Positions 23,914-24,939 of a stretch of DNA of 39,572 nucleotides are shown here, one piece after another (the first letter of the stretch is position 1; the number at the start of each line of letters is the position of its first letter). The stretch is taken from IMG/VR virus record IMGVR_UViG_2521172733_000013; one strand, written 5' to 3'. The stretch comes from a virus (Duplodnaviria; Heunggongvirae; Uroviricota; Caudoviricetes). Position numbers and translations under genes: made by a program. The notes under the pieces were generated by a model. It saw only the letters and a list, made by a program, of their open reading frames with translations, was not told the DNA's origin and made no database searches.

Positions 23914-24939
23914 ATGTCGATGTACACAACCGCCCAACTGCTGGCGGCAAATGAGCAGAAATTTAAGTTTGATCCGCTGTTTCTGCGTCTCTTTTTCCGT
24001 GAGAGCTATCCCTTCACCACGGAGAAAGTCTATCTCTCACAAATTCCGGGACTGGTAAACATGGCGCTGTACGTTTCGCCGATTGTTTCCGGTGAGGTTA
24101 TCCGTTCCCGTGGCGGCTCCACCTCTGAATTTACGCCGGGATATGTCAAGCCGAAGCATGAAGTGAATCCGCAGATGACCCTGCGTCGCCTGCCGGATGA
24201 AGATCCGCAGAATCTGGCGGACCCGGCTTACCGCCGCCGTCGCATCATCATGCAGAACATGCGTGACGAAGAGCTGGCCATTGCTCAGGTCGAAGAGATG
24301 CAGGCAGTTTCTGCCGTGCTTAAGGGCAAATACACCATGACCGGTGAAGCCTTCGATCCGGTTGAGGTGGATATGGGCCGCAGTGAGGAGAATAACATCA
24401 CGCAGTCCGGCGGCACGGAGTGGAGCAAGCGTGACAAGTCCACGTATGACCCGACCGACGATATCGAAGCCTACGCGCTGAATGCCAGCGGTGTGGTGAA
24501 TATCATCGTGTTCGATCCGAAAGGCTGGGCGCTGTTCCGTTCCTTCAAAGCCGTCAGGGAGAAGCTGGATACCCGTCGCGGCTCTCATTCCGAACTGGAG
24601 ACAGCGGTATAAGACCTGGGCAAAGCGGTGTCTTATAAGGGAATGTATGGCGATGTGGCCATCGTCGTGTATTCCGGACAGTACGTGGAAAACGGCGTCA
24701 AAAAGAACTTCCTGCCGGACAACACGATGGTGCTGGGTAACACTCATGCACGCGGTCTGCGCACCTATGGCTGCATTCAGGATGCGGACGCACAGCGCGA
24801 AGGCATTAACGCCTCTGCCCGTTACCCGAAAAACTGGGTGACCACCGGCGATCCGGCGCGTGAGTTCACCATGATTCAGTCAGCACCGCTGATGCTGCTG
24901 GCTGACCCTGATGAGTTCGTGTCCGTACAACTGGCGTAA
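23914..24939 (+). pseudogene. E: Major capsid protein E interrupted by an in-frame TAA (ochre) codon at 24613-24615
   Basis: Track splits E into 23887..24612 and 24628..24939 in the same frame; sequence reads GAG ACA GCG GTA TAA GAC CTG GGC AAA where lambda has ...ELETAVKDLGK... (AAA Lys) as I recall. Confidence 0.8.

Follow-up and report, generated by a model that had tools for sequence, protein, structure and literature searches.

A single ochre codon interrupts the major capsid gene E in a lambda-like prophage of Escherichia coli

Background

The stretch of DNA analysed here (hereafter the window; 39,572 nucleotides) spans a lambda-like prophage in which the frame of E, the gene for the major capsid protein, is broken by a single TAA codon. 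This raises the question of whether an element whose other genes look functional has truly lost the ability to build heads, or whether the stop is an artefact, a laboratory construct, a codon that is decoded, or a defect that is circumvented with the help of another phage. In the initial annotation the codon was read as a lysine codon turned into an ochre codon, which would leave the prophage head-defective unless suppressed and otherwise intact, and three alternatives were offered for it, namely a cryptic, decaying prophage, a laboratory nonsense allele and a sequencing error. The comparisons reported below support this core reading and favour the first of the three alternatives: the ochre codon is almost certainly a genuine loss-of-function mutation, and the element a clonally inherited, head-defective prophage with a single lesion.

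Results and discussion

The ochre codon in gene E

The E frame can be followed on the + strand, in the sequence and its translation, from an ATG at 23914 to its natural TAA stop at 24937-24939. The alignment to lambda E that had been proposed in the initial annotation gives 98.9% nucleotide identity over all 1026 nt (11 nucleotides differ), and a tblastn search with lambda gpE gives an alignment over residues 1-341 that contains one stop, confirming that the frame is lambda-like on both sides of the interruption. Codon 233 is AAA (Lys) in both intact alleles that were examined, namely those of lambda and of the O157:H7 strain LSU61. The lambda record NC_001416, which reads SELETAVKDLGK across this stretch, has AAA at this codon, as had been stated when the locus was first read. 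A single A-to-T transversion at nucleotide 697 of E separates this AAA from the TAA of the window. An in-frame TAA inside a lambda-like E is thus plainly seen in the sequence, but it lies at 24610-24612 rather than at 24613-24615 as first placed, the latter being the GAC codon (Asp234) immediately 3' of it. Similarly, the early termination of the capsid protein had been correctly anticipated, whereas the length given for the product, about 233 residues, has to be amended to 232. Besides codon 233, three amino acid differences from lambda E (K215R, N225H and Q278H) were found against a lambda E sequence that the record NC_001416 confirmed for residues 226-240 and codon 233 only.

The two parts of the interrupted frame separately match the Pfam family PF03864, with 149.5 bits for the N-terminal and 82.9 bits for the C-terminal part. 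For the intact LSU61 allele, which equals the E of the window after repair of codon 233, the score against the same profile is 240.7 bits (cut-off 22.9), and residues 1-341 of the repaired protein can be aligned to the solved lambda gpE structure 7vi9. E therefore retains a significant match to the family and its place in a lambda-type head module with the order nu1-A-W-B-C-D-E-FI-FII, the neighbours being collinear with those of lambda and encoding proteins 97-100% identical to them, but it lacks an uninterrupted frame over the whole domain (~341 aa). As the TAA at codon 233 leaves positions 1-214 of the 329-position profile and deletes positions 215-329 from the product, E is a pseudogene of the PF03864 family rather than a functional member of it. 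Relative to lambda gpE (NC_001416 gene E; PDB 7vi9/7sj5; PF03864) the gene has the same 341-codon length and the same head position between D and FI, and differs in having TAA for AAA at codon 233, in the three substitutions mentioned above, which are conservative, and in being embedded in a mosaic whose int, immunity, Q and lysis modules are not those of lambda. The features of the locus and of the prophage are collected in Table 1.

Table 1. Coordinates of the features of the prophage and of the interrupted capsid gene in the window
Feature	Position	Strand	Remarks
Lambda-like prophage, int through side tail fibre	1-39572	+	Order: int, recombination, immunity, replication, nin, Q, tRNA, lysis, cos, head, tail
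int, 380 aa	1-1143	-	35% identical to lambda Int; the window starts exactly at the end of the gene
tRNA Ile (GAT)	13531-13605	+	Directly downstream of Q and upstream of the holin gene; ARAGORN, Rfam
tRNA Thr (TGT)	13611-13686	+	Directly downstream of Q and upstream of the holin gene; ARAGORN, Rfam
cos	17781-17792		Lambda cohesive-end sequence GGGCGGCGACCT
Major capsid gene E, homologue of lambda gpE (Pfam PF03864)	23914-24939	+	Pseudogene with one internal stop
Truncated N-terminal product, 232 aa, coding part	23914-24609	+	PF03864 profile positions 1-214 of 329
Ochre codon TAA, codon 233 of E	24610-24612	+	Sequence and translation
3' remnant of E, untranslated	24613-24939	+	108 codons and the natural stop, in frame; PF03864 profile positions 229-328

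We also considered the expression of the C-terminal part of E as a separate gene and rejected it: the reading frames that could start downstream of the stop (GTG at 24628, ATG at about 24643) are byte-identical to the corresponding sequence of the intact LSU61 gene, and hence there is no adaptation for separate expression of the C-terminal part.

The remainder of the prophage

When probed by tblastn with lambda proteins, the head and tail genes nu1, A, W, B, C, D, FI, FII, Z, U, V, G, T, H, M, L, K, I and J were all recovered at full length and without stops, as were exo, bet, O, P and ren together with several nin genes. Identity of the structural proteins to those of lambda is mostly 95-100%, with a lower value of 88% for J. 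In the near-identical prophage of the E. coli O111:H21 strain 15A, PGAP flags no further pseudogene between bet and tfa. E is thus the sole broken gene among the essential genes that are homologous to those of lambda, which agrees with the initial reading of a cryptic, decaying prophage with its other genes intact.

The element as a whole is best described as a mosaic and not as lambda, given its distinct int, immunity, Q and lysis modules: cI is 34% identical to its lambda counterpart, tblastn with the lambda proteins yielded no match to Q, S or R in the window, and lom and stf differ from those of lambda. The window itself carries no host flank. Its positions 1-4895 are 99.98% identical to positions 1023000-1027894 of the 15A chromosome, which form the icd end of the 15A prophage. 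There int ends 113 nt from icd (L014 3753-6259), and at the opposite end the tail fibre genes are followed by chromosomal genes. This match places the phage genome in a bacterial chromosome. The element has no other major capsid gene than the one with the nonsense codon, so that a gene required for virion production is inactivated, as befits a defective prophage. The icd region is also used for integration by e14 and phage 21.

Certain minor features of the prophage deserve mention. Of its two tRNA genes, PGAP annotates the Thr tRNA gene alone in the near-identical 15A prophage. In gam, the N-terminal extension of the annotated 138-aa Gam of lambda corresponds to positions 4578-4631 (- strand) in another frame, and the 98-aa form (4216-4512), the one that PGAP annotates in 15A, is intact. 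The homologue of lambda orf61 (2257-2424, - strand) has a stop codon within its tblastn alignment; this may be a second, trivial lesion in a small, non-essential gene of the b region, or an alternative end of that gene. Finally, the cIII thermoregulator element of lambda (Rfam RF01804) was detected at 4817-4875 on the - strand with 88.5 bits, with its regulatory RNA structure conserved.

Carriers of the ochre allele

To place the allele among its relatives we compared genes, short words and proteins across several collections. A byte-identical 1026-nt E with the TAA is present in the complete genome of strain 15A (NZ_CP077477.1), a clinical isolate from Homo sapiens, which is the sole 100% match to the gene among 5,426 complete E. 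coli genomes. In the RefSeq/PGAP annotation this copy, KP524_RS05335, is labelled as a pseudogene ("major capsid protein, internal stop"). A 61-mer with the TAA at its centre likewise occurs exactly in one of these 5,426 genomes, about 1,050 others matching it with at least one mismatch, and in IMG/VR a 40-mer with the TAA is found on one contig and its AAA counterpart on 76. An exact-protein look-up recovered the 232-aa product (P0001) on 74 contigs; in strains DEC15A and DEC15B it is recorded under the name 'putative capsid protein of prophage' (GenBank EHY00958.1 and related entries). Ten loci fetched from this look-up were compared together with that of 15A, giving 11 carrier loci that come from the complete genome of 15A, three DEC15-series drafts, two other NCBI isolate drafts, four ENA metagenome assemblies and one Logan SRA assembly.

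The E gene with its TAA is byte-identical at all 11 of these loci, and the nearest intact allele, that of LSU61, differs from it by one base, an A at nucleotide 697. Across the 10.4 kb of the head module from nu1 to T the carriers are 2-5 SNPs away from the window, two SNPs being private to the latter, and one of the DEC15-series drafts (GCA_000250555.2, AIHR01000016.1) shares 20.7 kb with the window at 100% identity and is presumably its source. This near-identity of the head module indicates one recent origin of the allele, followed by clonal descent. As a substitution error would not recur identically across independent assemblies, the base can be regarded as real and inherited; support for the T at 24610 is here drawn from the independence of the assemblies in place of the reads of the window's own assembly. 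The 3' remnant of E shows zero substitutions among the 11 carrier loci and against LSU61, but this undecayed state says nothing about selection, because the carriers are so similar that only about 0.1 SNP would be expected there anyway.

Copies of E broken in other ways were encountered as well. Among 62 full-length close relatives in IMG/VR with AAA at this position, two (L050 and L089) carry frameshifting deletions, of 1 nt in one copy and of 8 nt near the 3' end in the other, which puts the proportion of broken E copies in catalogued proviruses at roughly 3%. Lesions in E are therefore not unusual in prophages. Our search of the literature on DEC15 and O111:H21 strains returned nothing relevant to the TAA allele.

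Weighing the alternatives

The distribution of the allele bears directly on the two alternatives that would deprive it of biological meaning. Were the true base an A and the stop merely an error in one assembly, the gene would be expected to differ from the nearest intact allele by a single base, as it does, and the DEC15 drafts are indeed old, one of them having several shortened gene calls that resemble indel errors; however, the same T at 11 separately fetched loci, from projects and data types as varied as a finished genome, metagenomes and an SRA assembly, along with the exact truncated protein on 74 contigs, leaves a sequencing or assembly error with hardly any probability. The notion of a laboratory nonsense allele of lambda E, residing in an engineered phage or strain, might draw on the near-identity of the head proteins to those of lambda, and nonsense mutants in lambda E are well-established tools in the laboratory. 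Yet classical E alleles such as Eam4 are amber (TAG) rather than ochre, and the background of the allele is neither lambda nor an engineered derivative of it: int and cI are only distantly related to their lambda counterparts, homologues of lambda Q, S and R are lacking, there are two tRNA genes after Q, lom and stf are not those of lambda, and the prophage adjoins icd and not the lambda attB. Moreover, the carriers include a clinical isolate from a human host in addition to other isolate and metagenome assemblies. A laboratory origin can consequently be set aside as being of negligible probability, and neither of these two alternatives of the initial annotation was upheld.

If the stop is a natural one, it might still be decoded by an ochre suppressor tRNA, by programmed readthrough or by recoding, so that full-length capsid protein is made. 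The intactness of every other gene, as in a phage that is still functional, and the presence of two tRNA genes in the prophage would be in line with this, but the anticodons of these tRNAs are GAT (Ile) and TGT (Thr), and neither is TTA. On the host side, we searched with Lys, Tyr and Gln tRNA genes whose anticodon had been changed to TTA, thereby covering these three classes. In every genome the best match had exactly one mismatch, which validates the tRNA sequences used as queries, and none reached 99% identity or more; hence no Lys, Tyr or Gln tRNA gene with a TTA anticodon is present in the 5,426 complete E. coli genomes, 15A included, and 15A is without a suppressor of the classical supG/L, supC/M and supB types. 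For these classes, then, a cognate tRNA with the UUA anticodon was found neither in the phage nor in the host. An Rfam scan of the prophage for recoding elements returned only the cIII thermoregulator and the two tRNAs. Further, the bases around the TAA equal those of the intact alleles, arguing against a carrier-specific recoding signal, and the stop is not conserved in diverged relatives, being absent from the approximately 1,050 genomes and the 76 IMG/VR contigs that have the same context. The rarity of the allele (1 in 5,426) and its confinement to one near-clonal head module fit a recent lesion and not a conserved recoding site. Suppression or recoding of the TAA is, on these sequence grounds, very unlikely, if slightly less so than an error or a laboratory allele; natural readthrough of UAA at a low level may occur. 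A somewhat better case, albeit still an improbable one, can be made for a prophage that is head-defective and nevertheless mobile, with its capsid borrowed from a co-resident or superinfecting lambdoid phage, or with the gene rescued by recombination. Such helper dependence or rescue would, if true, explain both the pristine state of the other genes and the swapped tail modules. Defective lambdoid prophages of the O157 strain Sakai are inducible, are released as particulate DNA, are sometimes transferred and recombine with each other (PMC2669165), and temperate phages are known to recombine with defective prophages (PMC3945230). In the same vein, cos and terminase are intact in the present element, the tail modules differ among the carriers, and 15A has two other, distant E-like stretches. 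Against mobility, a search at megablast sensitivity found E at one place in 15A, i.e. there is no second close copy, and the two distant copies may be incompatible with this head module; the tail mosaicism requires recombination within a cell only and no transfer, and the near-clonal head modules fit vertical descent. In a more distant blastn mode three places in 15A are similar to E, namely this gene and the two distant stretches; the latter are presumably the capsid genes of other lambdoid prophages, and it is formally conceivable that they supply capsid in trans.

Origin and consequences of the lesion

The explanation that best accounts for these observations is, with high confidence, a genuine loss-of-function ochre mutation in a clonally inherited prophage. 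By this account an A-to-T transversion would have turned the AAA codon for Lys233 into TAA in the E gene of a lambda-like prophage that, in 15A, adjoins icd. The mutation probably had a single, recent origin in a lineage of E. coli to which the O111:H21 DEC15 strains belong, and has been inherited vertically since. Translation is predicted to halt after 232 of the 341 residues, and with the loss of the C-terminal third of this HK97-fold protein no proheads should form, as judged by analogy with lambda genetics. The same analogy leads us to expect that upon induction excision, replication, late expression, tail assembly and lysis would still take place, without the release of infectious particles. 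In non-suppressing hosts, E-defective mutants of lambda make no heads and yet produce active tails and lyse the cell, and have hence supplied the tails for in vitro packaging. As lysis should be unaffected, the host would gain no obvious protection from the mutation. The lesion may thus be viewed most simply, by the precedent of lambda, as one that is neutral to the host, lethal to the phage and fixed in a clone.

A functional parallel is offered by classical nonsense mutants of lambda E such as Eam4, which share the premature stop in E and the same expected phenotype, with no proheads and with tails made. Eam4-type mutants serve as donors of tails and terminase in in vitro packaging. They are laboratory amber (TAG) alleles in lambda, in contrast to the natural ochre (TAA) allele described here, which resides in a wild lambdoid prophage known from isolates and metagenomes. 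Another parallel is the pool of Sp prophages of O157 Sakai, likewise lambdoid prophages of a diarrhoeagenic E. coli in which lesions inactivating morphogenesis genes and recombination between prophages are seen; most of the Sakai prophages, however, appeared multiply defective (PMC2669165), as against one detectable lesion in the present prophage, which thus seems to stand at the very start of its decay. The 15A gene KP524_RS05335 and the entry EHY00958.1 with its related entries (DEC15A, DEC15B) represent an E gene that is identical to that of the window and has the same TAA. Accordingly, both the kind of event, the inactivation of a prophage by a point mutation, and this very lesion are already on public record, and what is seen here is ordinary prophage decay.

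In practical terms, an otherwise complete-looking prophage of O111:H21 DEC15 strains is to be scored as defective, and calls of "intact" by prophage-prediction tools would be wrong for it. As a natural case it also shows cleanly how prophage decay begins, one point mutation having occurred and the rest being intact. The TAA allele might be used as a marker of the lineage, or as a natural system for studying rescue and recombination between prophages. Beyond such matters of annotation its significance is slight, and it opens no new question.

Tail mosaicism among the carriers

The window and the 15A prophage show only five differences between position 3915 and about 30000 of the window. From the 3' end of H onward they diverge, with differences of 3-9% from there through J, and lom and stf being 79-86% identical. 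Apart from the few differences upstream, it is hence in the tail region that the two prophages part, and the window does not derive from 15A.

This pattern extends to the other carriers. The tail regions (approximately 30000-39572 of the window) of six prophages with the identical TAA head module (L001, L003, L004, L006, L008 and L009) were compared with that of the window and proved to be mosaic, other carriers having different variants of H or J. Such mosaicism suggests that recombination with other lambdoid prophages took place after the capsid lesion or at about the same time.

Two of the carrier contigs depart from the others in additional respects. In one draft (GCA_006233015.1, contig SQDS01000132.1, approximately 16043-20699) homology to the window ends inside H, at window position 29949, and the contig continues with the terminase, portal and Clp-protease/capsid genes of another phage; this break reflects either further decay, a rearrangement or a chimeric assembly. 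The other, a DEC15-series draft (L006; GCA_000250575.2, AIHS01000015.1), has shortened calls for the lysozyme (89 aa), W (55 aa) and L (221 aa) and five gaps relative to the window, all of which are more likely to stem from indel errors in the draft than from real decay.
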